DNA of 64,000 nucleotides from Blasia pusilla (taxonomy: Eukaryota): positions 1,798,001-1,862,000 of the forward strand of contig CM114271.1 of NCBI GenBank assembly GCA_050084515.1. Direction: 5' to 3'. Positions 9,130 to 49,000 of the stretch are shown here, piece after piece; within the stretch, counting starts at the first letter, position 1; each line of letters starts with the position of its first letter. Position numbers and translations under genes: made by a program. The notes beneath the pieces are model-generated. The model worked only from the letters and a program-made list of their open reading frames with translations. It searched no databases and was not told the origin of the DNA.

Positions 9130-12100
9130 CTGGTCCCCTTCTCAATTATATAGGGTATGTACAAGAAACCCTAACCCTAATCTTAACCGTAGTCTCGAGT
9201 TAGACTACTTGTGATTAACTAACCCTAGTTAAGATAATCGTGCTTAACTGACTAACCAAGATTAAGCTTCCCTACTTCGTGTGAGTACCAAATGTAGCAG
9301 TTTGGATGTCTGATGAGCTTGCATGTATCTCAATCTTTAATAGATTTGTCTGTCCATGTCCGTCTTAGGGATGGACTTGTCTGTTCTTGTGCGACCATGA
9401 TAATAGGCATAGAAGGAGCAGAAAAATGGAATGAGACTCGCTAGCTGTAGAGTTTATGAATTTTGACAAGACTACTCTTTTGCATCCTTGTACTTAATAC
9501 AAAACTCTTAGCATAGGATTTCTTATTAATTTCCCCTTTCAAAATTTCTCATTTATAAACTTATCTTAAGTTAAATTATTCTTGGGAAAATCATCCCTTC
9601 CAATGACACCATCTTAGTTTTAGCGGGAAAAAAATCCATGTTTCCTCCTTATCACCTAGAAATCATTTTTTTCATTTCATTTCTTCGTTATTGGGATTTT
9701 TTTCATCATTCCCCTCCTTGCCTCTCCACTTCGTTCGTTGAAAAAATAAAATTATCTTATCTTCTCTTTGAAAATCTCATATGATAAATATTTTTTCTTG
9801 AATTTTTTAATATCCTTAAATTTGCAATAACTATTCTTTGAGTGAGTCATACATATTACTAGAGTATCATGCTTGTAATGCCCATGGATTTTCACTCTTT
9901 TACTTGAATTCATTATGTTCCTTGTTCACATTCCTAAAGATTTTTTTTAGGAGTTTAGAAATACTTATAGTCTAAGAATATAAATTACTTTCCAAAATGG
10001 AACATAAGATAGGAGAAATACCAAGAAATAGTTTTATTACATAAGTAAAATTTCATCGAGAAAGAAAAATCTGAAATAAGAAAGAATAAGAAGATCCCCC
10101 AAAAACTTGGAGAGAGAGGACTTCAAAAATTAAAGAACATCAAGATCGCGTCCTTCTTGGAAAATTTAAAGAAATCAAGAGGGAAAGGATGTAAGAAATA
10201 TAATAAAGATTGAAAAGAAATGGCAACAAACCACTAATTGCACATGATGTTAAGAGAGGATATGTCATTAATTTGTTAACACTGTCTCATATTTTAGGAT
10301 AGATTGGTGAGATCTAGTAGAGCGCCCTTCTCAAGTACTGGAGGACAGGCTCAAGAGGTTGAGGATGACTTGCTGAGGCCCCGAGAAACCTGAGAGAGCA
10401 GGTTTCCCTTTCGTTTCGGATCATTTGGAGCCATATTAAGGAACTTACTATTTTAGATAAGTACCATTTTGAGCATATGGTCGACTTTCTATTTTTGATA
10501 AGTGGTCCTTGACCTGCTACATCAGGTCAAGACCCAAGGAGGTGACTTGGGAGCAAAGGTTACCATGGAGAGAGCTTGGGGGAGGGAAGGGGTATACCTC
10601 AAGGAGAGAGAGTTTGAGAGCTCATTCTCTCTTTGTTGAACCTCTTGGCATGAGTTGGCGGAGCTATGATCTTGCTTGCCTTGTGTGTGTAACCCAAGCC
10701 TCTCATTAGGAGAGTGGGTTTGGTTTGACATTGAGAGAGACATGTGAGAGTGCACACATTTGAGAGTTATGGTGTTGAGAGAGATTGGATCTTGATTTAC
10801 AAAGAGAGAATGAGATGAGTGAGAGAGCTTCATGGGGGAGCTCGCTGGTCACTCGCTGGTTTTGCAAGTTGGGGATGGTGTTCCCCATTCAGCGGTTCAT
10901 GGGAGTGCTCCTCGGAGCCAGAGCCGCTCATTTTTTTGTTTCCTTTGCCGATTTTTCGTTGCAGAAGAGTGGCGCGTAGAAGCGCTGCCCAAGTTTTGAT
11001 AGGGATTGAGTATTGGGGCCAATTTCCCCATGCTGGTGCTCTCGGGAGCACCATGTACCGTGCTGATTTTTATTTTCATAGGTTTTAAATTTTTGTTGGG
11101 AGAAATCAGTGTGGAAGCGCTACCAAAATTTATGGAGGTGAAAGACACGTTGGGCTTTACGACAGTCCCCGTCAATTTTTACTGGAATGCCTTATTCAAA
11201 ATATTTTTTGACTTTGTTGTAGATCGTGAAGCTATGTACGCTGTGCAATGGTGCGCAATTGGGAGTTGCAAGCAAAAAGTTGTAGTCAATCTTGCAAAAT
11301 TGCCATTGCTAGGCGATTTTTAGGGTTAAATTGTTCAAACCCTAAACCAGCCGTCGTGCCGGCGGCGGCCGTAGCCATCATAGTCATCACCAATCGGGTT
11401 ATGGTGTCTGAGTTTTCATTTCATGTTGCTATGTTGTGATCGATAGCCGCTCGACGATGATCGAGTACCGTGCCGTGACGCCTGTAGCCGCAACGCGCCG
11501 CTTGTGGCCGCACCGCACCATCTCGATCGTGGAGCCGCTCCTTCAATAAGGAGTAGAGCGTGTGAATTTCTGATTGAGGAGGGTATACTACTGAGTGCCG
11601 CATCCCATTCCCGAGTGCTGTGCCATTTGTAGTCGTTCTGTGCCGCCAGTGCCGCACCAAACCTGCACCATACATCGAGGAGGTTTGAGCAGCATTAGTA
11701 TGAGAGAAGTATAACTTGTTGATTGGAGGATTTGTCTTCACGATTGAGTTGGAGTCGAGATTTGCAGTTGCCGAGGAGCGACATCGACATTATTGTCAGG
11801 TTACCCATTTTGGTCTCTTACCTTGCATGTGTGAGGGATTTCCGAGTATTGGGAAGTTATTTGGGATATTGGGTTTCATGTTGATGTTGAGAGCATCGAT
11901 GATGTATGGGTTTAGGGGACATAGACCTATGTGGGATGTCCTGAGTTGAGGATGGTTTGTCGATGAGACGATAGATCAGTTGATTTGCCGCACCACGCTG
12001 CTTGTAATCGCACAACACACGTCTTAGTGACAGAGTGTAGATTGAGTGCCGTATGTTTAATTTGAGTGATTGAGGGATTACTCGCGAGATTGAGAGTGAT

Positions 12101-12249
12101 CGTGTGATAGGGGCACGAGGGCAGTCACGGCGTCCTTTCAAGATTTTGAGAGGCGAGGTAGTGGACCTGAGAGTAGCTCTTGAGGGTTTACCCGGAGTGG
12201 TGCAAGGTTTCGAGGATCTCCACGTGAGAGACCACCTCGATCTCCTTCT

Positions 12250-12552
12250 GTGTCATCTTTAGACGAGGGGGAGCATGTAGAGGAGTGTGCTGGTGATCCA
12301 CCGTACACATTGAGTGGTCCTACCCGTTGGGCGTACAAGATGGACGACCGAGGTAGAGGACCGCGTAGGTTTTCGGGTGTTGTAGGCACTATAGAGCTAC
12401 ACGACTTCATTGCAGAGTTTAGGAGTTGGTGTGACTCACAACGGGCTAGGAACTCTAGAGAGTTCAACCCTTTTACAGCATGGAACGGTATGTTCTAGCA
12501 TTTAGAGGGGGCGCCCATGGACTATTACCATGAGTTCTCCCACAGATATGCC
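12250..12552 (+). pseudogene. gag, 5' part (before the DNA transposon insertion)
   Basis: GPRRFSGVVGTIELHDFIAEFRSWCD...F*HLEGAPMDYYHEFSHRYA. The frame continues as QEIEAWRLYYDPHY at 25043 once the insertion and one TSD copy are removed. Confidence 0.8.
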
Positions 12553-12946
12553 GAGGTGCGGTAAGAGGAGAGGAAGAGAGGAGAGAGGAGAGAGGAAACT
12601 ACCTTCAACCAAAAGAGATACTTTTTTTTGAAGAGAGTTTCCGTTGGGTTGAAAAGAGGAAACTTTTTGTGTGAAATTTTTTGCACTTTTTTGCTCAGTT
12701 ATTAAGCAGTCCCACATTTGTTTTTCCTCTTCCATATTTTGGCAACCCATGTGAGTCCGACGAGTTGCAAATTGCACAAAATTTAGAAAACTGAAAAATT
12801 AGTGGAATCATAAGTGTGGAACCAATCACTTTTTCCGTCCAAGGTATGGAAAAAATCTATCATTTGCCCCGGGCAAAATAGAGTTGAAGCTCAAAGTGAA
12901 GATTCTGGAAAACTGAAAGTACAATCTAAAACCTCATTTTGCATCC

Positions 12947-15900
12947 TCAAATTGGTTTGTTTATAATACTTTGCACTTCTTTGAGGGACAAAATTGGTTG
13001 GTGGATTCCTACTCCTACCTCCGACTCTCTTAAAACTACAAGCAACACATAGTACATGTGCTTACAAGGGAAATACCTTTTGCCACTTGTCTCTCTTTGG
13101 ACAAAGTCATCACATGAACATGTGGGAAAGCAGTAGATGTGCACCACATACACCCCTGTGACACTCAAATTTACAGTTTTGTTCCTGACCCAATACATCC
13201 TTCCTATTCCATTGCCATTGTGGACATCTTTTGTGGCGATGATCTCCATTTTTGCCTCTCGAGCTGATGCAATTCACTTTGCTCTCTCCGTCGTTGGCAT
13301 ACACATTTTGTTTCTCTTCACCCCATTTCTAGACTCAAACAGAAATAGTGGATTGAGATCATCCACCTTCTCCGGGTACATGTTGACATCAATCTTGGGT
13401 TGAATATGAAATGCAAAGGTCTCTGTAATGCGAACATGCTCCGAACTTCCTCCGTCTACGAGTCTGAAACCGGCACTTGTAAGATTGTCGACTTTGTCTT
13501 GAGTGCAATTCGTACTTGCGGCGATGGGCCAAATCGTGGGGGTATTCCCTGGAGCTCCAATGGCAGCCGGATAAGGCTTCCGAAAAGTGAAAGTTTCATT
13601 TGGGCAGAAGAAGTACTTCAATTGATCCCCGGTCCTCGTGAAACGATCAAAGGTTTTGAGTCCCCAAAACCCAGGCAGTGGTCGTCTAGTCCTTGTACAG
13701 TTCTTATTTAGGAAAGTGCATCATGCTCTCCTAATGCCATCAGATCCTGTCGTGGAAGTGGATCCACGTCCGGGGTTGCTCCGAGATATATGCCACCGTT
13801 TCAGATTGCAGTCCATCTCCATGACCGGAATCCCATATTGTTGAACCATCCCAGCAACCGGATGTTGCGAACTTCTAGCAACGGAGGGCTTTTGAAATAA
13901 AACATTCATTGATTTTGGAGAAGTTACTCCATCACGGATTTGGGAGCGGTCCGGGGTCCCTGAATACCTGGGCGGCGTAATTTCCTCATCCAAATCAATC
14001 ACCGGATTCGTTCCTCGATGCTCCCTCTTCACCTGCCTGAAGTCAAGATACTTATCTGGTCTTCACGAGTCTCGCTCGGACTGCTCTACCACCATATGTA
14101 TGGGACGTCTTGAAACCTGCCCACGAATACCCCCACCAATGTGTACATCTTGCTCAAGGGGAGTTCCTGCTACGCACCCGTTGAAGGCATCCACATAGAG
14201 TTTTTCATCACCAGATCTCACAGCCGTCCTGACATAGAGCTCGTAGATCGAAGGCCCTCTTCCTTTTGTTATACCTTTTGTGAGGAAGATATGAGATGCT
14301 GCAGACTGTAGCATTGCTCTTGCCTGGTCTTGTTGGCATGCCTCCACAAGTGAAATTCGTTGGCATGCTTGTGACGACCTCCAGGAGGAATGAACACTTT
14401 CTGCTCCACTTGTGTTGGGGCAGAGGGCATTTTCATGAATGTTCAATCCCTGCAACGACGGCAATGTGAGAAGGGAACGAAAATAGCTCAGAAGTCAAAG
14501 AAATAAGCTACCTGTCGGAACCAGACGGGTTGCAAAGTTGAGGCATCCCATGAACGACTCTGCGACCCGTCGGATCCCGACGTGTTCAACCCGTCCTGTG
14601 TTGAATGACTATTGCAACCCGTCCGATTCCGACCGGTTGCAAGAACCTTTGGCCACTCTGGGCTGGAAGATCCAAGAGGCAAGTCATCCGAAACCCATGC
14701 GGGTCAAACTATTTGCAGGCCTTGTATACATGCGACTTGCATACTTGAATACAGGTTGCACCAAAATTCTTGATGCAACCCGTCGGTTTCCGACTGGTTG
14801 CACACTCAGGCAACCCGTCCGTTTCCGACGGGTTGCACACTCGAGCAACCCGTCGCATCCGACAAGTTGCTTGGTTTCTTCAGTTTGAAATCCCTATAGT
14901 TCCCACGCTTCTCAACTTGAGCTGCAACTTTTCAAACAATTCTCAGCGTGAGCTTGACAAGACGAAATAGTGAACTCACCTGCCGCATGAAGTTTCCCCA
15001 TTGTCTCATACGTATAGTCCACCAACTCAGCCAAGAGCACAACTCTTTGTACTTCCCCTCAATCGCATGCTTCCTCCACCACCCATGAAGTTCTTCTTGG
15101 CATTCCATGGCCTGTTTCAAGGTTTTGCTGTCCTTGCAGCGTTGGAGTAGAGTGACATGCTCTGTCCTCTTATTCTCCTTGATGCAAGATTTGGTATACC
15201 GGGTCACAGTCTGTTGCCAATGGAAAGCATCCAACCTTTCCCTCTTCGGTTGAACCTCTCCACCCCAGAATACTTCCCTGATATCAATCCACCCAGGTTG
15301 TGCATTGTCCACCATGAACCCATAAATTTCCGGAGGTGGCCTTTTGTTTTCCTTTACCACCTCCAATAAGAGTAACCAGCACATCTTCAAACTGCCAACG
15401 TCTTCTGCTTTTACTTCATACACAAATATAGTTTTGAGTCCCTTCTCCACATGGTCATAAACGTGAGCATCCATTGTCAACCATCCGTTTAGCACTCTGT
15501 AGCAAATATCAAAGCTTACCCAGCTGCCGTAAAGATCTTCCCCTTCCCTCATTCGATCTATAAGATTGAGGCCACTCGACGGACTTGACGTTGATATTTT
15601 GAAGACATAGGCCCTAGATCCTTCGCCTCCCTGGCCCATGAACATGAACTGCCATCTCTGAATGAATGGAAATCTGGAGTTGGCCTTGATTCTGGCAATG
15701 GCATCCATTTTGGCCGTCTTTCCATCCAGTACCCGTATTTGACGCAGCAAATTCTGGAAGCATTCAGGATCAGCGAGAAATGCGAGATTTTCCTAGAGTT
15801 GTTTCTCCTCAACAGCGGTGATCTCGCCCTGTCCAAGGATTCCAAGCAATTGTTCACAAATTTTTGATGCTGTTGTGAGCTTAATCACTCCGGGCTTTGA

Positions 15901-16997
15901 ACCCGGAGAGTTTATGTAGACCTTGGCCACTTTCTTCGCCACATCCTCCTTGATGTGTCTCTGAATTGCATCGGTCACAAGATGAGTGTGGGAGCCAACA
16001 TGAACTGCCAGCCTTGTGTACTGTGACGTGGAGCCAAATTCGTGGACAATGAAAAATACGTATGCAGGACATGCTCCAACGCAGAAAGGGGATGCCTGAC
16101 AATGAGGACATCGATGGCCTCCCGGCGGTATGGTGGCACCGACCTCATATGGAGTTTCTGCATTCTTGGGGGGAATTGTGACGTATTGACCCGCCCATTG
16201 CGCTCTAGATACGGGCATGCTGGACTTCTACAATCCAAGGCTCCAACGTATTGGTGGCGGGAGAAAATCCAAGGACCATCTGGAATTGAAGCACTAGTCC
16301 GTTGAAGCTTGCACCATCGATGACAATCAGAGTTTCTGTCCATACCCTTCAAGCGTCCTCCATCTTTCTTTTGAGGAGGAGTAGCAAGTGGAGGGAACTG
16401 AAAAATGCAATTACCATCGTACGTGGGCAGAAGTTCGTCGACAAGAATGTGCTTGAACATTTTCAAGGCCAAAGACCATTGCAAACTATTGCCTGATATT
16501 CGCAAGAGTAACGAGTAGGCGGACAGAGGGCCCGATTGGTGTCCGACAGATCCACTGAGGTTGACAACATCCGGAATGTCTTCTGGAAGTACAACATTGT
16601 TACGAGCGTGTGAAGTTGGAGTCAAAGTCGGATCTACTGAGCTAGGAGTTGCAAACGTAGAGCTCGGTGCACTAGGAAATTCTTGACCGTCTACTTGGGA
16701 AACTGAGGAATTCGGAGGCAAGCCGTAAACTCTGTATTGACCATTTGCTAGAGGTAGGAGATTCCATACTTTACGGTCTTCAATCACTGGCTAGACTGTC
16801 TCACCTATAATGTCCTCCGTACCGTCCACCCTAACATCCTTGGATACAAAGATGGTTCCAATTTGGAGAAGAAATCGAACTGAGAGAAAATTTTCATCCA
16901 CTACTATGAAAGACTCACGAGCTTGCGGTCGAACGATTTATGATTGAGGAAGGGCCACTAGATGACTACCACAAGTGAGCTTCACATAATTATCCAT
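12947..16997 (-). pseudogene. MULE-type transposase with N-terminal GCM-like zinc domain, DDE core and C-terminal SWIM finger
   Basis: Motifs SFDICYRV (D), FMVDNA (D), AFHW, PNTSGAESVHS (E) and SWIM CSCDDF...PCKHMYYV. A GT-AG intron at 14450-14979 joins WGNFMRQ|GLNIHEN. Several stops and frameshifts. Confidence 0.8.
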
Positions 16998-18027
16998 TCC
17001 CAGAAGATTCCATCGGGAGGAGATTGAGAATAAGAATGAGGATAAAAATGGGATTGGGAATGAGAATGAGAATGAGAATGAGAATGTTTCATTTATAGTG
17101 AATAGGGACTCAGATTCTCTTGACAGAATTTGATTGACAAGATGAAGTTTGGTAGGTGAGAATGTATGACATGATGGATTCAATTCTGTTGCAACCTGAC
17201 AAAGTCCGATGGGTTGCATAATTTGGGAATCAGAGATGTGGGTTGCGAAGCACCCACTTCTATTTTTTGTTTCCGTGTCCCAATGCAAGTTGTAACCCGT
17301 CAGAGTCCGTTGGGTTGGTATCCCCTTCTTGCCAATCAATGGTCTTTTGAGTCAATTTTGCTAGCATCAAACACGAGAAATCGCTTGCATTTGCAAAGGC
17401 AACCAATCGTTGGGGACTTTTGCGGGATTGTCCAACTCAGGGTAGATGTTGTGACCCGTCGGATTGCTAAGGGTTGCCTCGGAACTATGCATTGTCGCAT
17501 TGTTACCCGAGGGATAGAAAAGCGGATCGCTAAGAAAAGCGCCATTACCCCAAGATAAAGCGCTGCAACCCGCCTCCGCGGTTGCCTGGTACCTCGCCTT
17601 ATTACCCCAAGATAAGCGTGCAACCCGTCGGCCCAGACGGGTTGCGGCTTTGTAACGCTTACATGAAGCGAAGGCCTCGTACAAGTTGCCTTCTTACCCA
17701 AAGACGGTGGAGGCGCGCAACCCGTTCGCCTCAGACGGGTTGCGCAAGTGCCTCGCCTTGTAACGCTTACATGAAGGAAGCGTGCAACCTGTCGGCCTGC
17801 GACGAGTTCCGTGGGTAGCCCGCGTTCTTTCCCGAAGATGGCGGAGGCGCGCAACCTGTCGGTTTCCGACAGGTTGCCAAGAGGACGGATGCCTGGAACC
17901 CGCGGAAAGCGTGCAACCCGTCGGAGCCGTCGGGTTGGTGTTTTTCACGTCCAGACTTCCATAACGGCCGACACGTCACCGTCAGAACGACAATGCGACC
18001 CAACGGTTAGCCCAACGACTCGAAAAG

Positions 18028-18035
18028 TATAAATA
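18028..18035 (+). promoter_or_regulatory. TATA box of the transposon cargo gene
   Basis: TATAAATA about 245 bp upstream of the ATG at 18274, within the divergent intergenic region. Confidence 0.5.
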
Positions 18036-18273
18036 GCCGAGGGTTCGCTCATTTCCCGTTTTTCGTTTCGCGATCTCAATTGCTCTTCCGCGCAGCGGCT
18101 GACCAGATACCAAGGGGTGCTTTACACGACGACTCATTGCGAGACGATTCGAGCTACTCATCAAGGTGACTCATCGCGACATCAGCAAGGCGACTCATCA
18201 AGACGACTCCTCAAGGCGACTAATCGTGCACAGAAAGCAATTTCCTTGTCCATAGGAGGCATTTTTGGGAACA

Positions 18274-21200
18274 ATGATGAGGAAAAAAACTCAAGCAAGC
18301 AAGGTTGGGAGCTTCACTCCCAAGGGTGGGAGGACTCCTGCATCACCATCTCTAGGGCCTCATTCGGCCAATGAGATAAGCCAGCAAGAAATCGAGGAGC
18401 GGGAAAGGGAAGTGGAGATGCACAAGCAGGAGCTTCTTGCAAAACGTTTTAAGGAGGCGCTCAAAAAACAGAACGCAAAGGCTGAGGCATCGCAGTCCTT
18501 GAAGAAAAGGATCGCTGATGAAAAGCGTGAGAAGAAGCGTCTGGACGCGTCGGTCAGGAGAGCGGAATTGGCAAAAGCTCGAAGGGAAAAAGCGATTGCC
18601 ATTGAAGAAAGCCCGGCCCGTCCAACCGAAAGTGTTGAGATGTAGGAAATGTCCCCAATGAAGTCCGAGGACACAATCAATATAGCGGAAACGGACAAAG
18701 TTCGAGTGACGGACGATGAGGTCATGAGGACCGCCAGCGTGGAGATGGTGAACATTGTTGAAGAAGCAAGAGAGCGGTCTTCCTCATCTCTTAGCCCGGC
18801 GGAAGAAATCGACCTCTATCGGATCGACAAGTTTCCAGTGGACTTGCCAACTGATGTCCCAGAGTAGTTGGTTGGCCAAGACACCGACCCAATCTTCGAG
18901 CGGTTAAGAAACGATCTTGGATCTTTGAGTTATGTGAAGGGCCATGTTGCAATTCATTGGCAATTCAGTGTAGTTTATTGACCTTATCCCTGTTGTGACA
19001 CATGGTAAAGCAGATGGCACTGATGGAGGGCTAGAACGCCCCGAGAATTCCACTTTTCCGATTGCGGACAATGGAGTACGTCCACAAAATTCAGTCTGAC
19101 GAGGATATTGCAAAGCTGAAACAATTAGTAGCGACAACATCCTACGTCGACAGCTTCCCTCCGTTCTATGTTCAGCCTTACGATGAATATGGAACCCAAG
19201 CGCTGGTTACGGAGGAGGACTTGGAAGCACTCGACACATTCTGGAGGATGAGAGATCAGGAATTCAGAAGGGCGATTGAGGGGACGGAATTCAGTTGGAT
19301 GCGGAACCTGTATTTCTTCATCTGGGATGGAAACCATAGGTTCATGGCGTGGACCCAGTTTGCAGAGGAGCGCCCAAACTCATTGGAGGTGCATTTTTGC
19401 GTGAAGGAAGTCGTGCTACATCCATACCCTCATCACATGGCGACGATGGAGATGGCAATGCATGCCATGAACACGTAAGTTTCCTCTTGCCGCACATCGT
19501 CGGACTCCGACAACTTGTTTGACTCGCCACTATTTTTGGCATGTTTTTGGCTCAAAGCAACTCGTTGGAGTCAGACGAGTTGCTCGACTAGCCGTTGTTT
19601 TAGGATGTTTTTTGCCGAAAGCAACTCGTCGGAGTCCGACGAGTTGTTCGACTGACCACGGGTTTAGGATGTTTTTGGCCGAAAGCAACTCGTTGGAGTC
19701 CGACGAGTTGCTCGACTGGCCGCTATTTTTGGATGTTTTTGGAAGAAAGCAACTTGTCGGAGTCCGACGAGTTGCTTGACTGGCCGCTATTTTTGGATAT
19801 TTTTGGCCGAAAGCAACTCGTCGGAGTCCGACAGGTTACATTCGCCGACACGGGAAGGTAATCGGAGTAGGGGAGTTTGATTTTTGGCGTCAAATTGCAA
19901 CTTTAATTGAAATTGCACAACGTGTTAGACTTCGACGGGTTGATATGTTCACTTTTCTTGCGGAGACAACTCTCTAAATACAAATTATTTGACAGCCCGT
20001 CGGAGTCCGATGGGTTGAAACCAGGCAATCACAAATCTGAATGCAATCCATCGATGGGTTAAAAAATTTAGCTCGTAGCTCCCATTCCGACCATGAGCTG
20101 TGACAACGTGTCGGAGTCCGACGGGTTGCAGGGACCCATGTAGCTTGCAAAAATTCTGATATTGAGTTTGGATGTGCAGGATTGTATCAGAGGGGAATGT
20201 CACCCAGCATTGGATCCATGATTGCGATCGGGTGAAGAAAGTGCTAACGACGCACCTGGCAGAGTACAAGGGGTTCTTGGGCGACGCCCTTGTAAATGAG
20301 ATGCTGGCAAAGGGTGCTCAAATAAAAAAAAGACTTGGGCAAATACATTTATTTCCCAAGATGCAACCGTGACAATCCTTTGCTGGTCAAAGATACAGGC
20401 CGCCAAGAAGAGCGCTGCATTGGAGCTAGAGCCGAGGGAGAAAGTGTATGTGTCTCAGCGTGCTAAATTCATCAAAGCTGCAATATCTGCAGGCACGAAG
20501 TACACGGCAAGCAAGATGCAGCGCTACATCGCCATTCTCAACCCCAAACTTGGCCCCGATTTCTACAAGGAGCTGAAGGGGATAATCAAGCGCCAGCGGA
20601 AGAGGGATGAAGATCCGTAGGGTCGGATTGGGGAGAAAGTGTCTCTCGATTGCGTGCATCGATTTTTCTTGTCCAGAATTTCAGAATTTAAGAGAATCCG
20701 ACTGATGAAAATCAGTCTCGAGGGCACAAAGGCCCAAAAGAGGGCAGCACACCATCCTCTGGGTGTATCTGATCCAGTGATCTCCCACTGGCTCCGTGAA
20801 TGGTCATTCTGGGACGGGTTGTGGCTTCTCGGGAAGTCCATGCTCATGGGTCTCCAAGCGGAGCTGAAAAGAATAGAGCCAGTTGCCGAGGAAGCAAACC
20901 TGGAGAGTGCTGAAGATTTTGAACTTTGGCTGGATGACATGCGGGACAAGCCCATAAAAAACCCAGGCTTCAGGACGATGTTCAAGGATCGCATCCTCCC
21001 TCAAGCAGACCTTGATGAAGAAATAGAGGCGAAGAAAAGGGATTTCGCAAAGAAGAAGCAGATCTTCAAGAGCAGGCGGCCAATGCATCTCGACTAAGAG
21101 CTGCCCAACGGATGGTGTTCAGGTACCTCGTCCATTGTAAGAATATAGGTACATGGCGAAAAATACCGGCAGCCTGAAAATTGTGGGCTTCTCCGCCTCA

Positions 21201-23240
21201 TGGAGAGACATTTTCCATGTACGACATGGAGATGGCTCAAAGCATGTCCGACTGGGAAGTGGAGAATTTCCGATCTGGCTGGACTTCAACGACCCTGAGG
21301 ACATAACCAAGAAAAATATATGCCTGTTCTATGATGCAATGACCGTAGGTAGGGACGACATCCCCAATTTTGTGCAGGCTGAAGACTTTTTCAAAGGAGA
21401 TGCGGAGGAGCAAGCCCTCGAGATAGCAGAGTTGGTGTCCAAGGTCGTCACCGCCAAGGACAAATCTACAACGGGTCTCAAAGCCAAGGCGAGGGATCGA
21501 AGAATTCCAAGGCCGAGTCTTCCCAAAGAGAGGTTGAGAATTCAAGGCGAGAGCCGAAATCGTCCGGGCAAGCGGGGAGACAAGGTCGGACCAGGTCCTC
21601 CGCAAAAAGAACTCCACTAGAGTCTGAGGTAATAGAGACCCCAACAAGCCGACCGCAGACTGTGGAGAAGCGGAAGCGAGAGGCGTCAGGGTTGTCCCAG
21701 GGAGCAGACCAGGATGTGGAATACACTCCATCATCCTTGGGAAGACATAGAGAAACAACGACCCGGACAAGCGTCATCATTCAATGCAGTAATCTTTTGG
21801 ATGAGCTGAAAAGTTTCAGTTCCCAAGCGTTGACACCTACCATCGAAAAATTGACAACGCTGGGACAGAAGCTTCAACGAACGGGCACGCTCCCTGGACG
21901 GCCCATGGGGAGGTCAAAGAGGTGGCGGTGGATCTCCTTGTCGTTGATTTGCCCTCGGGGTTGCGCTTGTGGGACGAGAATCCATCCGACGGGGTCCCAG
22001 ACTGGAATGTCCCTCTTTCTTATGACCAGATCGCACTCCTGTTTTTGTTTGCAAACGCTTATCTCAGTGACAGGGGCTGTTTCTTAGTTTTGACTGGAGG
22101 GAGCGAGGACAAGCTCTTCAACCACCAGTGCGTCAAGAGGTCGCTGAAGTAGAGGACGGCGCAATCGTGGTTCATGAAGAACGAGTATCCACTCCGATCC
22201 GCGACGAGTCAAATTCGGGTAAGGGCTCTAAATCCGTATCCAAATTTTCTTTCTCCGACAGGTTGCATCTCTGCATGCAACCCGTCGGATTGTTTGAGAC
22301 TAGAGACTTTGGTGGTGCAATCCGTCTGAAAGCAACGGGTTGCAAATTTACCATAAGTCTCCATTGGGTGAATGCAACCTGTCGGAACCCGAAGGGTTGC
22401 AGTGCTTATGCTTTTTCCTTGTGTTTCTGGAATGATGCAACCTGTCTGAGAGCAACGGATTGCTCTTAGCCAACCATAGGCTGCTCTAAGCCAACAACCT
22501 GTTGCCTTCCGACGGGTTGCTCATGGACAAAAAAATCACAAGCACTTGTAAAACAACCCGTCGGACTCTGACAGGTTGCTCCAATGTTAGGATTATAACG
22601 AAGTTCTATGGGATTAAGCGAAGTTCTTTGGGGACGTGTTGCATATTATGTCACCATACTGAGAGTAGACCAATGGTCAAGTAGCTCTTTCTCGTTGCTG
22701 ACATTGTTTCCAACGTGCTTCTTTACAGATGGACCACTCCTATGTTTACTGCTTTGTTCGGCCTGAGCACAACTTCCAAGTGTTTAAGATCCTGGATCTT
22801 GTGGATCCATGCTCCGATGGGTACAACTTAGATAGTTTATACAATTCCCCCCGGGAATTTACATGCAAGACGGTAACCCCTTACTTGGAGGAAGGGAAAA
22901 GTCGCGAGCCCTGATGCAAACGCTTATCGAGCTCTGCTCAAGGCCGAGTGACTTGGTGTTTGACTTAGTGGGCCTTTCAGAGGCGAGTATCAGAGGCGCA
23001 TGGCAGAGTGGCAGGAACATTCTCTACCTTGAGGGAAGGCAACAACTGTTTGACCTTTGGAAAGAGGCAAAGGCAGATTACGATAGGCTAGTTGGGGCGT
23101 ACAACTCTCCTTCGAAGCCGAGAGCTCCGGTTCCAGACCCACCATTGGTAGTGACACCATCGTCACTTCCCACGATTCCAAAAATCGGGAGGGCAAGGCC
23201 GACAATAAATCAGGAAGAGCTCTCGGACAATGACAAGTGA
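18274..23240 (+). pseudogene. Transposon cargo gene: coiled coil, ParB/Srx-like domain, and beta-class amino (N4-C/N6-A) DNA methyltransferase-like domain
   Basis: FFIWDGNHRFMAW (DGNHR at 19326-19340); VDLLVVDLPSG (motif IV-like, to 21960); GREKSRALMQTLIELCSRPSDLVFDLVGLSEASIRGAWQSGRNILYLE (motifs X-I-II-like, about 22890-23035). Frame-preserving GT-AG introns at 19475-20179 and 22219-22728. Stops and frameshifts present. Confidence 0.7.
19493..19838. repeat. 64-bp tandem array (about 5.5 units), each with the palindrome GCAACTCGTCGGAGTCCGACGAGTTGC
   Basis: Units start at 19493, 19557, 19621, 19685, 19749 and 19813, inside intron 1 of the cargo gene. Confidence 0.9.
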
Positions 23241-23280
23241 GTTCAAAGAACTCAAGGACCCAACTTGATTGCAACGTTTG

Positions 23281-24380
23281 GAGTAGGGATTTATTTGATG
23301 ATGAGGCAAAAGAATTCATAGAATAGATCAAATGTACAGTTTCGAGCTTCTTTCGGATGTAATAAAGGACAAGATTTTTTCGAACGATGATGGTGTTTGT
23401 AAAAGTTTGCTGAATATCTTTTTTGGTCTTGTCGAATATGATCGTCTATGCACTCGAGGACTTCTATTTTGCAACCCGTCGGATTTCCATGGCTTGCAAC
23501 TTTTCACTTTTTGACCACTACACCTTTTTAACCACTTCGAGGCAACCTTTCGGACTCTTTCCCTGTTGGTCCAACTTTAGAGGCATTCTGGCGGACTTCT
23601 TCACTTTGGCACCTTCCCCTAGTATCGTCAAACAAGGCGTAGGCTTCTTCTCTTCTCTAAGACGTGTTGGATTCCTACTACCTGTTGGATTGCCATCATG
23701 GAATTTCCAAGGACAGAGCACATATTGATACTGGATGAGTGTTACATTGCAGAGCGTACAAGATATACTGCCGAGGAAGGCAGTGGGACTCAAATTAGGT
23801 TACATGGGACCGTTATGGTGTACCTAGGGGGGGCCAAGGCTCTCCAATTCGCCAACATTTTCGATCCCCGTCTACAATCGGCCAGAGGAGCCACTTGTAT
23901 CCCAAGATATTCCTTTTGTACACGAACCTAGGAGAGTTAGGAGTAAATTTGTAGATGACGAGGCTGAAGAAATCATAGACTAGATCAAATGTACATTTCC
24001 GAGCTTCCTTCGGATGTAATAAAGGACGAGATTTTTTCAAACGATAACAGTGTTTGTAAAAGTTTGCTGAATATTTTTTTTGGACTTGTCGATTGTGTTC
24101 GTCTAGCTACTCAGAATGTTTATTTTGCAACCCGTCTGATTCCGACGTGTTGCAACTTTTCACTTTTTGACCACTGCAACTTTTCAACCCTTTCCAGGCA
24201 AGCTGTCGGATTCCAACAGGTTGGCTGCTTGAGTGATCGGACTCTTTCCTTGGGAGACCAAATTCTGAGGCATTGTGGCGGGCTTCTTCACTTTTGGCTC
24301 GTTCCCCTAGTATCATCAAACCAGTCTTAGGCTTCTTTTCTTCTCTAAGACGTGCTGGATTCCCAAACAGTTGGATTTTT
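23281..24380. repeat. Imperfect duplication of a roughly 420-440 bp block (23281-23700 and 23941-24380)
   Basis: Shared TAGATCAAATGTACA...CGAGCTTC.TTCGGATGTAATAAAGGAC...TGTTTGTAAAAGTTTGCTGAATAT...TTCTCTAAGACGTG.TGGATTCC. Confidence 0.85.
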
Positions 24381-25042
24381 GTGGGTGCAGGGTGGAATGG
24401 AATCACTTCTCAAAATCTTTCCTTTGTTATGGTGAGCTTGCTTGCAAGGGGTGCAAGCCATCTGATTCTGACGGGTTGCAAGAGTTGGAACCTGTTAAAT
24501 TCCGATGGGTTGGGAGGGGTGCAACTTCTCGATTTATCAGATTTAGGATCTGAATGAAGGGACATCAGTTCCTCTTTACTCCAGACAGCTAACAATCTTT
24601 TGGTTTAATTATCGTCTCCTGTGTTCACATTTCACAAAGTTGGTCTTTATTTGAACCTTTCATTGAGATGAGATTGCTACTTCTGGTCAAATTATTTGCC
24701 AATGGTCCTCCAACAAAAATCCCCCCACAGGCACAGTTCATTATCAGACTCGAGACAGCAATGTGAAGAAACTTAGGCTCACATGGAGAGTGATGGAAAA
24801 TTTTTGTAGTGGTCTTATGATGTCTACTTGTTTTTGCCCTCTGGAAAAAGGAGGTTTCTTTAGGCCCGAATAAGGACCACTACCTACTCTCTTCTAAAGA
24901 TTTCATGAATTTGAAAGCAAATAGAAATTTCAAATATGTCAAAAAGTTTTGAAGAGAGGAGGCACATTTGGCCCTTTTTATTTGAAGAGAGACTCTCCTC
25001 TCTTCCTCTCTCATGCCAGAATACCAGCCCCCCAGATATGCC

Positions 25043-27250
25043 CAAGAGATTGAGGCATGGCGACTCTACTATGACCCACACTATATGTCATGGATGGAGC
25101 CGTTCCGAGATGAGGAGGAGGAGTTAGGAGAGGCTACTTCCTCTTCCACTTGTGATGTTTTAGGAGGGGTCACTCGCACTGGAAGAGTTGGACCGTCTAG
25201 CCGGGTTCGTCCCAGGTTCAACCCCGTGGTTGTGTTCTTTGCTAAGTTGAGGGCGAGCTACTAGGGGTACAGACGGAGAAGTTGTGGAGCATCCATGACT
25301 TGCAGAGGTGCCCGGTGAGAGTTTGCATGAGGCTTACATTCGCTTGCGCCGGTTGATCAACGTCATTCAGGGGGTGACAGAGGCTCAGGCTATCCAGTCA
25401 TGGTATGCGATGCTGGACCGGATCTTGTGGACACGAGTACGAGAGGGGTGCTTCTTATGAACACCTCCCCTACGTTGAGAGACGGTTTTAGGACCGCCGA
25501 GAACATTGAGCGCAACATGGTGGAGGAGAGCGTAGCCACCATGGGTTCTAGGCGAGAGCAGTCACGATTATCTGCACCACGAGTACAACAACGTGGACTC
25601 CAAGAAAGGTCGAGTGTGGAACCATGAGCTCAAGGAGGATATCGGGAGGCCGTGCCGCAGAGACGTACGCCTTCATATGCGGGTCAGTAGCAGCCGCCTA
25701 CGATTACTTGTTGGTCATGTGGTGGAGCCCATCATCAGCGTGATTGCACTCATCAGGGACATGGACGTGTGCCTCAGCATGAACGAGGAGATGGTGCTGC
25801 ACCAAGAGGTTATCAGTGTGACTATTGTCAGAAGTATGGTCACACATGCACAAGGTGTTTCAGTTTACACCCTGAGTTATGTCCGAGCGAGGGCCAGAGA
25901 GGACACCACAGCAAGTTATTGGTCCGGGTGGGCCTAGAGGACGTGCACGAAGTGGTCTTATTGGGGGACGAGGAGGTGGAATTGCCCGACAGGGTGGTGG
26001 AGCTGCTAGTGGAGGAGGTAGAGTCCCACCACCTAGACGCGTCGAGGGAGACGTCAGGCGTGAGGTTGGGATAGCTGCTTAGATACAACAACTACAGGAG
26101 CAGATTGCCGGTATGGCATTGAGGTTACCCGATGCCGGATCCATGGCATTGACATCATATGGAGCACCCAAAGATATGGAGGATCCTGGTTGGATGTGCG
26201 GGGTTGCCCAGATGGAGGCCGCCATAGTTGTGACGCGTGGAGCAACCGCAGAGTTGGATCCACAGCGAGGGGAAGCCAGGAAATAGACCACGTTTCCTTA
26301 ATCTTTCACGTTGTGCGAGGCAATGAGGATCCCATCGATGGGTCTTGATCAAAGTTCCCGGAGAGTTAATGATATTATTGGTGTGCAGGCACGGAGGGAA
26401 ATGAGAGAAATGAGTGGGACGACTCCTATTGCTAATGCTCAGGAGGAGCATGTGTCGAGTACGATGTTGGGGGCAGCCACGATGGTGTACTATGCTCCGC
26501 TGTTTATTGCTTCCGATGTTATGACGTTGGGAGGTACGTCCGTCAAGGTTTTTTGGCTAGCCGCTATGCTATGTGAGCGTGGAGTTGGAGTTCTTGCATC
26601 ACGTTCAAAGGAGGTGATGGACCTGCCCTTGGCGCGGATGCTCAAGCCGTCCATGTTAGATTCATCATAGGTTACGGCTGCTAGGATGGTGGAGATGCTG
26701 GCTAGACCCGCGATAGAGCGTGCCATGGCTTCTCCTGGTGTTGTGTTGTTGGATAACCGGGGAGAGGTCTTCCAGTTGGTGAGTCTAGGAGGTAGAGCTT
26801 TTAGTCCACAGCGCGTCTTGTTGGATTCAGGAGCGCAATCCCTGATATTGGGGAAAGCGTTATTTAGAGGATTGGGCTTGAAAAGAGCCGATATGGAGCG
26901 TTGTCCATACAAACATCCTTGGGTGGAGCGAGTACCACACAGTGTATTACCCGACAAGAGATAGTGGTGAGGATTTGCCCAGGATATCCTACAGATGAGT
27001 TGTGGTGCGAGCCAAGGTGATAGTGATTGATGTAGAGTCCTACGACATCTTAGTTGGTGGAGCAGTGTTATACCTGATGGCGTTTTCCCTGGATTAATGG
27101 GAGGAGTCAGCATCCTACAAACCAGGATGGCAGTCAGGTGATGGGCGCTTTAGCTCATTACCTATTTGATTCACAGGTGCAATGATTGAGCGACGACGAG
27201 GAGAGATGGCGACCTTAGCAGCATTTAGCAATGCCATCACTTGGCCTAGT
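25043..27250 (+). pseudogene. gag 3' part (two zinc knuckles) and aspartic protease
   Basis: Knuckles CWSCGGAHHQRDC (about 25708) and CDYCQKYGHTCTRC (about 25817); protease motif RVLLDSGAQSLILG (about 26812). Confidence 0.85.
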
Positions 27251-46031: not shown

Positions 46032-49000
46032 TCAGCCTCCAAAATTTATCCCTTGCGCTAGAGGCAGTGTCCGTCCATAATTGATTGTACTGCAGCCACG
46101 AGACACAAAAAGCCCAAAGTGTTATATTTACCACTAGCGAATCAGTTTCCAGCACAAATCATTCTGAGAGTTAACGAAAGATTGAAACCTGAGGAGATTG
46201 AATGCAGGTGAGAATCTAGGCCCAGTCATCTCACCAAGTCGTTCGTCGCATGTATTGTTTCCAAGAGTCGCTGCCTGCCTCTCGACCACCTCCAGTCTCT
46301 TTCTCACCACCAAAGGCTCCCCCGATTTCCGCACCATTGGTGGGGATGTTGACATTGGCAATACCACAATCACTTCCTGTTGGACTGTTTAACATGGGAA
46401 TGGATCAGCACTCACTATTCCATACTCTACTGAAGCTATTGAATTGCAATGACCTGTTGAATCTTTGGTGGAATGTGATGTTCCAGCCACTCACAAAAGT
46501 GATTGATTCATCCTGTTCCAGTGAATGCTGATACGATAAAGCTTTCCTATAAATGTGAATACAAAACAGCAGTCGTTTCAAAAAGATAGCAGATGGCAAG
46601 AGCAAAACTAGTGTAGTTCCACAAAGCTAGAAGAAATCATTGTTCATAGAAATGGCTCACGACTGCAGCCCCTCTATGTAGCACTAGCAAATGTCCAGGT
46701 AATTTATAGCTTATTTATAAGATAGGTACATACCCTGTCCACTTGAATATTGTTTCCAGATTCTGAGTGAATATGGAGCTGCTGAGCCCCTGAGGAACTG
46801 AGTTGTTCATCTCCACCGCTTCCTCAAAAGTCTGTCAAATGGGACGTTGAGAAAGGAAGTAAGCTAGTGGCTAATTTTTGGCAGATATCGTTCCACAGCA
46901 GAAACAGGATGGGAAGATCTTGGAAATGACAGTTATGCAAACTTCCGGTGATTACCTTGAATTTTATCACGTAGAGGATGGGACAAAATAGTTCCTCTCG
47001 GACGACAGGAGCATCATGAGATATTGCCACAACCGTAGGTTCCACGTAATTGCCCTCCCTCTCCATTACAGATCCACCAGTTAAAATGACTCCATTCTGT
47101 TACATTCAGGATCACTTTCTTCTTCAATGATCGGAATACTAAAAGCCCCTATGCCCTAGAATTACTGGAAAAGAAACATTAAAAAGCCATCATTCTGCTT
47201 CCTTCGCATCCATTGACGGCATTGAAAATAGCACAAAAGAGGTTGCTGGGGACCTGCACCTTGTGCAAAACACATGAAGGATAATGGAGCCCACAACAGT
47301 AACAGGGGGACTAGATTAGAGAAGAGGACGTTTGTCATCAAACCCTGAAAACCCAGTGAATTCTGAAAACAGTTGGTAACTGTTTGTATAACTATATAGC
47401 GCTTTCTAGAAAGATTGATGCGTCACATGTGCAATGAACCAAGATTGTTACTTTATATGTTTACAATTTGCACATTAGATGAGTGGTTGGGGGATGAAAA
47501 GAGAAAAAAAAAGAGAGTTCCTGGATACAAGTCAAATGGGAACCAAATGAACTCATCTGCACACCTTTTGCTGTAGCTCTAATGAGATTCCTTGATACAA
47601 GAAATAAAGAGAGAGTGATATATTTCATGCAAAACCGCAAAGTATGCCCATAGGAATGGAGAATTTTGAGCATGTAACAAAGGTGCTTCTCTCTCACTTT
47701 CATATGTTACAGAACTATGAGAATCACTTTACAAAAGGAATACTATCCTGCCAATTCCAAGGTTGGTATAATGGTCTACTTTTATCTTTCGGCAGTAATA
47801 TTAGGGACATGCTAAAATCAGCAACTTCCAAGAGAATCCAGATTCAAACAAAGAAAGAACAAGTACCTGCTCTTTGATTCTTCCAATGCCTTCTTTGAAG
47901 GCCATAACACCATCAGGTGTATGTAAGGGACCAAGGAGGGTGCCTTCAACCAGCGGATCACCAACTTTGACTTGAGAGTATGCTTTCAGAAGCCTGTCTA
48001 CAGTTTCTTTGTACACAGTCTCATGAACGAACTGTAGGCAGCAGCAAAACCATGTCAGACAAGGTCTTTCAGCAATCAGGCTCTACGGCAAGTAAGGCAC
48101 CAAAGTGCTTGTCATAGATGTGCTTAGTCCCATCTCCACAGAATATCAACAAAAGATTGATGTTCTTTAATCCTAGACCTCCACTGAACCTAAGACACAC
48201 AAGTGCTAGAGTATGATAAACTGTCAAAGCTGACCTGAGTCTGGCATTAATATGTACAGATGTAAAGAGAACAAGCATCTGAGAGTTTGCTCAACATTTA
48301 AGTGCAATTGACTGCATTTCTGGTGTGACAGTGAGCATGCAAAACTCTATGACTGACACACAAAGTTCACTCCTCGCCAGCACCTCTTTCGTTCTCAGTC
48401 ATGGACCCCTAGTCCCAGACCCTCAGACAGAAGAATGAGTGACCCTACACTACTGTTCAGAGCCAAGGACTTTGCAAAATGTGCAATTTAGTGTGGAGCT
48501 CAACTTGTTTCCGATGAGAACTTGAATTCCACAGAACTCCCAAGGGTTTCGCATCTGGTTGTAAAAGTGTGCAAGAGAGTCTCTTACCAGTCGACGGCAG
48601 CTTGTGCACCGTTGGCCAGCAGTACCCACAGATGCAAAAAGAACGGAACGAACTACCATTGAAATGTCAGCATCATCCATCACAATGATGGCGTTATTGC
48701 CACTTAACTCAAGCAGGCACTTGCCAAAGCGAGCATTGACCGCTTTCTGCACCAACTGTCCCACCTGCAGTTGATGCACCTTAAAAATCAGGACAACTAA
48801 ACTGAGCAGAGGTATACAAAAAAAACCTAAACATCCTCGTTCATCAAGATTACTACGAACATCATCACTCACACATCCTGCTTGTCTGGTAGACATATTG
48901 AAACAATAAATAAAATAGGCAACAAATGAAACAGAGAGGGAAAAAATAGAAAAACAAATGATTATCCTGAATATGTGAGATAATGGCTTGAAAATGGCAC

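Follow-up and report, generated by a model that had tools for sequence, protein, structure and literature searches.

Why does one 27-bp palindrome recur some thirty times in the non-coding DNA of a single transposon? This question is raised by a 64,000-nucleotide stretch of the Blasia pusilla genome (GenBank assembly GCA_050084515.1, contig CM114271.1, positions 1,798,001 to 1,862,000 of the forward strand), which we call the window and along which all positions below are counted. The transposon occupies 12553-25032 and carries two divergent genes, one for a transposase that appears to be of the Mutator-like element (MULE) type and one for an accessory protein with a predicted ParB-like domain. 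In the present study, we located the palindromes, examined how they multiplied and how well they are kept, characterized the two genes, and compared the locus with known systems. We consider it possible, at a probability of roughly 0.4, that the palindromes are recognition sites for the ParB/methylase-like accessory protein, the cis half of a module by which a large Mutator-like transposon family recognizes itself.

The palindrome has the consensus GCAACCCGTCGGA-N-TCCGACGGGTTGC, that is, two 13-nt arms around a 1-nt centre. When the full 27-mer was scanned with up to three mismatches, 12 matches were found in the window, all within 14614-24153, and matches were found in 0 of 100 dinucleotide-shuffled controls. 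Palindromes were also called as two 13-nt halves with at most four mismatches each, spaced 12-16 nt apart; this half-pairing search returned 31 palindromes, all between 12742 and 24479. None of the 31 lies in the other 51.5 kb of the window, outside the transposon, and none lies in coding sequence, which makes up 6,695 bp (54%) of the transposon. The original prediction, made from the sequence of the window, had described about 30 copies at these same places, arranged in non-coding arrays and with no full copy in exons or outside the element; our counts agree with it on each point, and the arrays prove to be tandem duplications within the introns, between the genes, and in the 3' region. The palindromes are distributed as follows (no strand is assigned to these features):

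12640-12768: left subterminal region, with a lone half-site (12640-12652) and a palindrome (12742-12768)
14507-14870: cluster in the transposase intron, 7 palindromes, with a 35-bp tandem array at 14775-14870
17191-17938: intergenic cluster between the divergent genes, 8 palindromes, the last five 62-97 bp apart
19492-20129: cluster in intron 1 of the accessory gene, 8 palindromes, with a 64-bp x 5.2 tandem array at 19497-19832
22317-22579: cluster in intron 2 of the accessory gene, 4 palindromes, with lone half-sites at 22254, 22277, and 22508
23471, 24127, 24198, and 24453: four palindromes of the 3' region, within a tandem duplication of about 660 bp

No copy is a perfect 27-mer, and the four best carry two mismatches. 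By eye, about four further degenerate copies, each with five mismatches in one arm, can be recognized near 17564, 19917, 22494, and 24487. Beyond 12640-24515, a single half-site with at most two mismatches was found, at 29127; by our arithmetic, about one such match is expected by chance in 51.5 kb on both strands. Palindromes are present in six of the seven non-coding segments of the transposon (the exception is 18646-19034), and their flanks are unrelated from cluster to cluster. Nineteen of the 31 are located in introns, and 18 of the 31, counted from their positions, belong to four tandem arrays. The intergenic cluster stops 90 bp upstream of TATAAATA at 18028. As point mutation cannot produce a 27-bp word again and again, each site must have received a copy of the palindrome and retained it. 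The palindromes are thus a real and highly non-random feature. Their restriction to non-coding DNA is expected of any insert-like repeat in a once-functional element, and alone it is no evidence of function. The exact pattern GCAACCCGTCGGNNNCCGACGGGTTGC gave no match in metagenome contigs, prokaryote genomes, or viral contigs, a weak negative, as none of the 31 window copies matches it either, and a literature search with the half-site letters gave only two unrelated primer matches.

Within clusters, the palindromes grew by tandem duplication of units of 64 bp (5.2 copies) and 35 bp (2.8 copies). The intergenic array repeats a two-palindrome unit, and a longer duplication has occurred downstream of the accessory gene:

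23297-23691 and 23954-24377, no strand assigned: tandem duplication of about 660 bp in the 3' region, 78% identical

In the first copy of this duplication, one palindrome appears by eye to be partly deleted between short direct repeats in the region of 23542. Reads from other copies of the transposon omit one 660-bp unit (joints 23487 to 24150, 196 reads, and 23696 to 24357, 72 reads).

In the 64-bp array, palindrome columns are more alike than spacer columns, both in units 1-5 (85% versus 75%, Fisher p 0.003) and in units 2-5 (92% versus 82%, p 0.004). On the alignment of the 31 copies, the two arms pair in 81.9% of cells, versus 81.7% after shuffling, and 225 of 500 shuffles were as high; double-change pairs numbered 2, versus 3.9 expected. 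Because the pairing equals that of the shuffles, without covariation, the arms have decayed independently from one palindromic consensus, so the sequence of the palindrome matters rather than a hairpin structure. The ratio of observed to expected CpG is 1.06 in the palindromes and 0.77 in other non-coding DNA; we made no use of this difference because the copies were chosen by a CpG-rich consensus and are subject to ascertainment bias.

Other members of the family were examined in DNA reads of the same organism. About 1% of one whole-genome run (X15) was mapped onto 11000-26000; 59,897 reads mapped, 196 of them at an identity of at least 99% and 50,562 at 90-95%. In the split reads, other copies carry an intact palindrome where that of the window copy has decayed or is partly deleted, while the adjoining spacers cannot be aligned. 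Joints with intact palindromes include 19480 to 19646 (133 reads), 24176 to 17851 (93 reads, with an unalignable spacer of 21 nt), and 17878 to 23550 (69 reads). Likewise, 243 reads with loose ends before 17837 carry ...GGTTGC followed by a spacer unlike that of the window copy. 'Opposite strands' and 'goes back' joints were also observed at palindromes in the DNA reads of other copies (14510-14837, 19480-19646, and 22224-22535), with rearrangement-type joints such as 22224 to 22535 (74 reads, side 53) and 14586 to 14837 (56 reads). Such joints suggest that family members differ by inversions or re-orderings between palindromes, although the shared 27-mer may have produced some of them as mapping effects.

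If the palindromes are docking sites, the likeliest candidate for the protein that reads them is the product of the accessory gene, which begins after TATAAATA, with an ATG near 18274, and lies on the plus strand, divergent from the transposase gene on the minus strand. Its parts are as follows:

18256-23240, plus strand: accessory gene, coding at about 18256-18645, 19035-19474, 20180-22218, and 22729-23240
19035-19474, plus strand: ParB/Srx-fold exon, with a nearly invariant D-G-N-H motif
19475-20179, plus strand: accessory intron 1 (GTAAGT...CAG), frame continuity matched to Riccia relatives
22219-22728, plus strand: accessory intron 2 (GTAAGG...CAG)
22836-23240, plus strand: last coding stretch, weakly like the motif-I region of DNA methylases (PF01555, E 0.05; phrog_6952, E 0.008)

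A full HMMER search with the exon at 19035-19474 returned 117 relatives (best E 5e-20), whereas a word-indexed search with the same exon found no homologue among longer proteins. Among 29 relatives that were checked, the liverwort Riccia sorocarpa accounts for 16, annotated as hypothetical proteins, and the fern Adiantum nelumboides for one. JGI metagenome contigs carry some relatives too. A search of viral contigs for relatives of the ParB-like alignment yielded none from 103 pattern matches. The structure of the exon was modelled from 56 aligned relatives (57 rows) with a pLDDT (predicted local distance difference test) score of 91.9. In the VIA structure search, each of the eight rows with Z of at least 5 (5.3-7.9) is a ParB/Srx-superfamily chain; Z then drops to 3.4. 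The top Foldseek rows are ParB, Noc, and sulfiredoxin (E 0.01-0.1), with KorB lower down. The model thus indicates that the accessory protein has a ParB/Srx-fold domain.

The methylase-like part is fainter. PF01555 (N6/N4 DNA methylase) matches the C-terminus of the Riccia relatives P0121, P0119, and P0122 with E-values of 9e-6 to 5e-5, just below the curated cut-off, and P0121 also matches four phage DNA-methylase families of PHROGs (best E 8.7e-7); the last exon of the window copy matches more weakly. An NCBIfam scan returned nothing, and neither did a Pfam scan of 12 long relatives of the accessory protein. The original prediction had spoken of a ParB/methylase-like cargo protein and had drawn a parallel with ParB loading at palindromic parS sites. 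The ParB/Srx fold is supported. The methylase part comes down to a sub-threshold match to PF01555 and phage methylases at motif I, and the fold found is the N-terminal, nucleoside triphosphate (NTP)-binding/nuclease-type domain, with no parS-reading helix-turn-helix demonstrable.

In the reading that we prefer, each palindrome would be a dyad-symmetric docking site for a dimer of a transposon-encoded protein, most likely the accessory protein. The sites would have been copied into six of the seven non-coding segments and then multiplied locally by tandem duplication, which would give a high density of sites on family members only. The bound protein might then act on its own copies: it might modify or open their chromatin, counter silencing, or, from the array that precedes the TATA box, regulate the two divergent genes. 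We infer the binding, the identity of the protein, and its effect alike. Of the two transposon-encoded proteins, the accessory one is our preferred reader because, in published cases, inverted-repeat arrays accompany a ParB-like gene together with unrelated transposases.

A more specific version would make the accessory protein a self-targeting epigenetic writer. The dyad centre of the consensus (columns 12-16) is GANTC, which is kept in 15 of the 31 copies; we estimate the chance that an odd-spaced palindrome has a GANTC centre at 1 in 16. GANTC is the target of adenine methylases of the CcrM/HinfI type, which are members of PF01555. A ParB-like dimer might sit on the palindromes while the methylase-like part sets a mark other than 5-methylcytosine (N6-methyladenine at the central GANTC, or N4-methylcytosine) on the transposon's own non-coding DNA, keeping the family transcribable despite host silencing. 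We regard this version as a long shot. If it were true, it would be the first adenine or N4-cytosine self-marking system carried by a transposon in a land-plant lineage, and its cis code would be legible in the sequence.

Several observations weigh against recognition by the accessory protein. In the 660-bp duplication, palindrome columns are kept no better than the rest (27 of 34 versus 309 of 366). The best-kept positions of the palindrome are A/T and non-CpG, and CpG transitions account for 31 of 117 substitutions; mutation bias alone could therefore produce this profile. Within the transposon, read depth is lowest in the palindrome-rich bins (about 120-180, versus 900-1330 over the transposase exons), which means that most relatives of at least 90% identity differ there. 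As for the protein, the ParB-like part corresponds to the domain that in bacterial ParB is not the reader of parS. A full-length model of the relative P0016 has a mean pLDDT of 52.7 and is confident in the ParB-like domain only; in the helical region that follows, the pLDDT is mixed, the alignments to ParB have a root-mean-square deviation of 13-18 Å, and no helix-turn-helix can be demonstrated. The methylase likeness spans only about 55 residues at motif I, under the Pfam cut-off, and the place where the catalytic DPPY motif is expected, located by our own reading of the sequences, reads DLPSG, DLPTG, or DMPSG. Finally, none of the RNA joints listed is a splice joint, RNA depth at an identity of at least 90% is low, and the window copy is dead.

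The second candidate reader is the transposase, whose gene is arranged as follows:

12947-16790, minus strand: transposase gene, exons at about 14980-16790 and 12947-14449
14450-14979, minus strand: transposase intron of 530 nt (GTGAGT...CAG), frame continuous across it

A SWIM finger (PF04434) was detected in the C-terminal exon, in 12947-13273 on the minus strand, at 19.9 bits against a cut-off of 19.6 (E 5e-4). A 286-residue exon has one homologue in a word-indexed protein search, P0001, which is 43% identical and aligned over 16526-14935. The MULE-type DDE domain PF10551 gave no Pfam match for the window exons (E at most 0.1) or for P0001 (E at most 1). The nearest ESM-Atlas clusters of P0001 carry PF10551, PF04434, or PF21056, at a score of 0.88 (below 0.9) that makes this a lead only. 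By eye, D...D...E-like motifs can be seen in WVSFD, FMVDNA, and NTSGAES. For the putative GCM-like domain of the original prediction, which would be the transposase N-terminus, Pfam and PDB sequence searches gave no match. Comparison of P0001 with PDB sequences gave nothing meaningful, and no metagenome-contig relative of the transposase was obtained from 164 pattern matches. Taken together, the sequence points to a SWIM-finger, MULE-like transposase.

The transposon proper was delimited by the following features:

12543-12552, no strand assigned: left target-site duplication CAGATATGCC, 10 bp, found exactly twice in the window
12553-25032, no strand assigned: transposon proper, 12,480 bp, inserted in another abundant repeat
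12568-12585, plus strand: GA-rich 18-mer, 15 nt inside the left end, half of the sole terminal inverted repeat found
24993-25010, minus strand: inverted partner of the GA-rich 18-mer, 22 nt inside the right end
25033-25042, no strand assigned: right target-site duplication CAGATATGCC, 10 bp, the second of the two occurrences in the window

The X15 reads contain a joint from 12542 to 25033 in 326 reads (154 + 172). Since reads joining these positions represent the empty site, 12553-25032 is an insertion; RNA reads also cross the empty site (10 in run X18 and 2 in run X19). The target-site duplication of 10 bp falls within the length of about 8-11 bp that serves as a criterion for MULEs. Long terminal inverted repeats (TIRs) of the classical Mu type were not found, merely the 18-nt GA-rich inverted match near the ends, and such vestigial repeats are compatible with MULEs having degenerate TIRs. 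The original prediction had placed the palindromes in a transposon and given a span of 12742-24515; the element itself is confirmed, and it extends further at both ends.

The window copy is dead, as shown by in-frame TAG codons in both the transposase gene (15793-15795, minus strand) and the accessory gene (20618-20620, plus strand), together with a 1-nt deficit at 16167, where 432 of 1211 reads have an extra G and the frame of the window copy shifts. Both of the gene-breaking stops are TAG. The family is large and old. Summed over reads of at least 90% identity, depth reaches about 900-1,330 in the transposase exons, falls to about 180-430 in the accessory gene, and is lowest, about 120-135, over 17012-18514. 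Comparison of 12553-17011 with 17012-24526 shows the transposase gene to be 4-5 times deeper than the accessory gene and about 10 times deeper than the intergenic array. The accessory half may be absent or replaced in many members of the family, or the non-coding DNA may have a fast turnover. In addition, 256 X15 reads depart from the window copy just behind 24647 and share one other continuation, so the last 385 bp or so of the window copy, which contain no palindromes, may differ from those of most family members. In the mapped RNA runs, depth was 0-16 per strand and bin, and nearly all reads were 90-95% alike. In both X18 and X19, about 35 RNA reads per run align solely to 37 nt (19059-19095) of the ParB-like exon and have unrelated flanks, probably reflecting a chance or fragmentary match within some unrelated, abundant transcript.

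The transposase itself might use the palindromes, its N-terminal zinc-finger domain binding them for end recognition, synapsis, or autoregulation, with the accessory protein uninvolved. Precedents exist: MULE transposases bind repeated subterminal motifs and a terminal palindromic motif in Muta1 (PMC5499845), and the AtMu1c transposase binds end motifs of its own family and hypomethylates them (preprint 10.64898/2026.08.24.746577). In the present element, palindromes or half-sites are found 88-216 bp inside the left end and within the final 1.6 kb, the densest short array lies in the transposase's own intron, and the greater depth of the transposase region means that many members may have no accessory gene to serve. 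However, a distance of more than 1.9 kb separates 24 of the 31 sites from the nearer end, the final 520 bp at the right end are without any, and the termini have in common just the GA-rich 18-mer, which is unrelated to the motif. The published inverted-repeat arrays track the ParB-like accessory gene across unrelated transposase superfamilies. We consider this explanation unlikely. Sites for a host transcription factor, acting as enhancer-like elements that drive both divergent genes and were recruited by the transposon, are less probable still. Five palindromes do lie within 420 bp upstream of TATAAATA, ahead of the accessory ATG, and each arm contains CCGAC, which we take to be the core of the plant dehydration-responsive element/C-repeat (DRE/CRT). 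Yet 23 of the 31 sites are outside the intergenic region, in introns, subterminal DNA, or the 3' region, and the other 51.5 kb of the window, with at least one host gene fragment, contain no copy.

Second in likelihood after our preferred reading, though we still doubt it, is that the palindromes are a neutral by-product, a hairpin-prone repeat spread by slippage, template switching, and ectopic conversion, tolerated where it breaks no frame and functionless. Purifying selection on exons would confine any such repeat to non-coding DNA, the arrays are tandem duplications, the arms do not covary, the conservation profile fits mutation bias, and the palindromes of the 660-bp duplication have no advantage in conservation over the surrounding DNA; the inversion-type and back-jump joints suggest that the palindromes drive rearrangements among copies. 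What local slippage cannot account for is one 27-mer in six segments with unrelated flanks. Nor does neutrality sit well with palindromes that are better kept than their spacers in the 64-bp array and intact in other copies despite diverged spacers, or with similar arrays beside ParB-like accessory genes in distant lineages. A role as RNA or single-strand DNA hairpins, in intron structures, small-RNA precursors, or replication signals, seems very improbable. All five copies that were folded form a stable hairpin of 11-12 bp (as DNA, -8.8 to -14.5 kcal/mol, z -5 to -6.4), and 19 of the 31 copies are intronic, but pairing does not exceed that of the shuffled controls, compensated pairs are found only where inherited within one array or at CpG sites, copies are also present between and beyond the genes, and Rfam gave no match at E of at most 1. 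A 12-bp stem is, moreover, short for a Dicer substrate. We give equally little credence to an independent miniature mobile palindrome, resembling a miniature inverted-repeat transposable element (MITE), that colonised the transposon. The two 13-bp arms do resemble abutting inverted terminal repeats; against this, none of the 31 palindromes has a flanking direct repeat of at least 3 bp at its edges (a single 4-bp match requires shifting the edges outward by 2 nt), the 51.5 kb of repeat-rich flanking DNA contain no copy, and the arrays are tandem duplications that include the spacers.

Some further features of the window were noted. A (GAGAAT)n microsatellite is located at 17020-17086, on the transposase side of the intergenic region, and a 13-bp repeat (5.5 copies) is located at 18156-18225, in the presumed 5' untranslated region of the accessory gene. 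The repeat that flanks the transposon (12002-12542 and 25033-25528) is abundant, with a summed X15 depth of about 600-700. An open reading frame (ORF) at 25691-26074 shows zinc-knuckle-like CX2CX4HX4C strings and has no Pfam match at E of at most 0.001. An aldehyde dehydrogenase ORF at 48450-49208 on the minus strand (PF00171, E 2e-25) represents a gene or gene fragment of the host and lies some 23 kb away from the transposon. A Pfam scan of the 15 ORF translations of the transposon revealed no other families, including none of the ParA type.

If the palindromes are docking sites for the accessory protein, the locus offers a clean system to test the suggestion, made for algal elements, that transposons carry prokaryote-derived modules to bind and modify their own DNA. 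It would be tractable, with a long (27 bp), dyad-symmetric, and easily mutated cis site, a very abundant family (about 900-1,300-fold transposase depth at an identity of at least 90% from about 1% of one run), and liverwort and fern relatives of the accessory protein. Sequence-specific anti-silencing, which has been shown for VANC in Arabidopsis only and suggested for AtMu1 and Spm, would then extend to a different fold and maybe to a different DNA mark. If the arrays are instead neutral, this case shows a palindrome colonising the non-coding segments of a transposon and promoting rearrangements among its copies.

Several known systems can be compared with the locus. Among bacterial systems, ParB-parS, Noc-NBS, and KorB-OB share with the present one a ParB/Srx-fold N-terminal domain and palindromic sites, often in several copies. 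Here, in contrast, the site is 27 bp long and occurs about 30 times in 12 kb, the host is a eukaryote, the context is a transposon, and a ParA partner was not found among the 15 ORF translations. Muta1, which makes target duplications of 8-9 bp and in which a palindromic terminal motif matters for binding (PMC5499845), and AtMu1 have multiple copies of a short non-coding motif bound by a transposon-encoded protein, as hypothesized here for the palindromes; their motifs lie in the terminal 145 bp or the TIRs, whereas those of the Blasia element are mostly internal and its termini are without the motif.

A likeness is also found in VANDAL21 of Arabidopsis, whose protein VANC21 binds YAGTATTAY; this motif is concentrated in the non-coding DNA of VANDAL21, such as gene introns and upstream sequences, where tandem-repeat formation has multiplied it (PMC5735166, Hosaka et al. 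2017). The comparison with VANDAL and VANC in the original prediction is accurate as published. Both elements are Mutator-like and have an accessory protein and a short motif that is dense in non-coding DNA, multiplied in tandem, and rare elsewhere. The VANC motif is, however, 9 bp long, asymmetric, and in one orientation, unlike the 27-bp dyad, and binding and hypomethylation have been shown for VANC, whereas the Blasia system is known here from its sequence. None of the 15 ORF translations is a VANC-type protein; the second gene encodes instead a ParB/Srx fold with a PF01555-like tail.

The closest counterparts are algal. In red-algal Plavaka transposons, a ParB-like accessory gene adjoins tandem inverted-repeat arrays (preprint 10.1101/2025.02.11.637652), and Sola1-1_Ec32 of Ectocarpus encodes, on the strand opposite the transposase, an accessory protein of 1104 residues with ParB-like and DNA-methylase parts; according to the authors, such proteins may bind the transposon that encodes them and modify it (PMC12477816). 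As in these modules, the Blasia element is a DNA transposon with, besides the transposase, a gene for a protein with an N-terminal ParB-like domain; in the algal type this domain is joined to a DNA-modifying one (a PF01555 methylase or 2OG oxygenase), to which the weak motif-I match of the Blasia tail may correspond. Like Ectocarpus Sola1, it has the accessory gene on the strand opposite the transposase, and like the element of Bostrychia it contains tandem arrays of inverted repeats. The best HHpred match of red-algal PAG3, PDB 7BNR, is also in the Foldseek list of the ParB-like exon of the window. The differences are that the algal transposases are Plavaka or Sola1 and the present one is MULE-like (the preprint mentions Chondrus Mutator elements), that the named accessory relatives here are from a liverwort and a fern, the likeness to the algal proteins being one of description, and that the palindromes here lie in the introns of both genes and in intergenic and subterminal DNA, not only beside the accessory gene. 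Our literature search found no report of such a ParB-like module in a land plant. The idea has already been published, as a suggestion, for algal transposons, and the palindrome and ParB-like module of Blasia is seemingly the first in a land-plant-type MULE.

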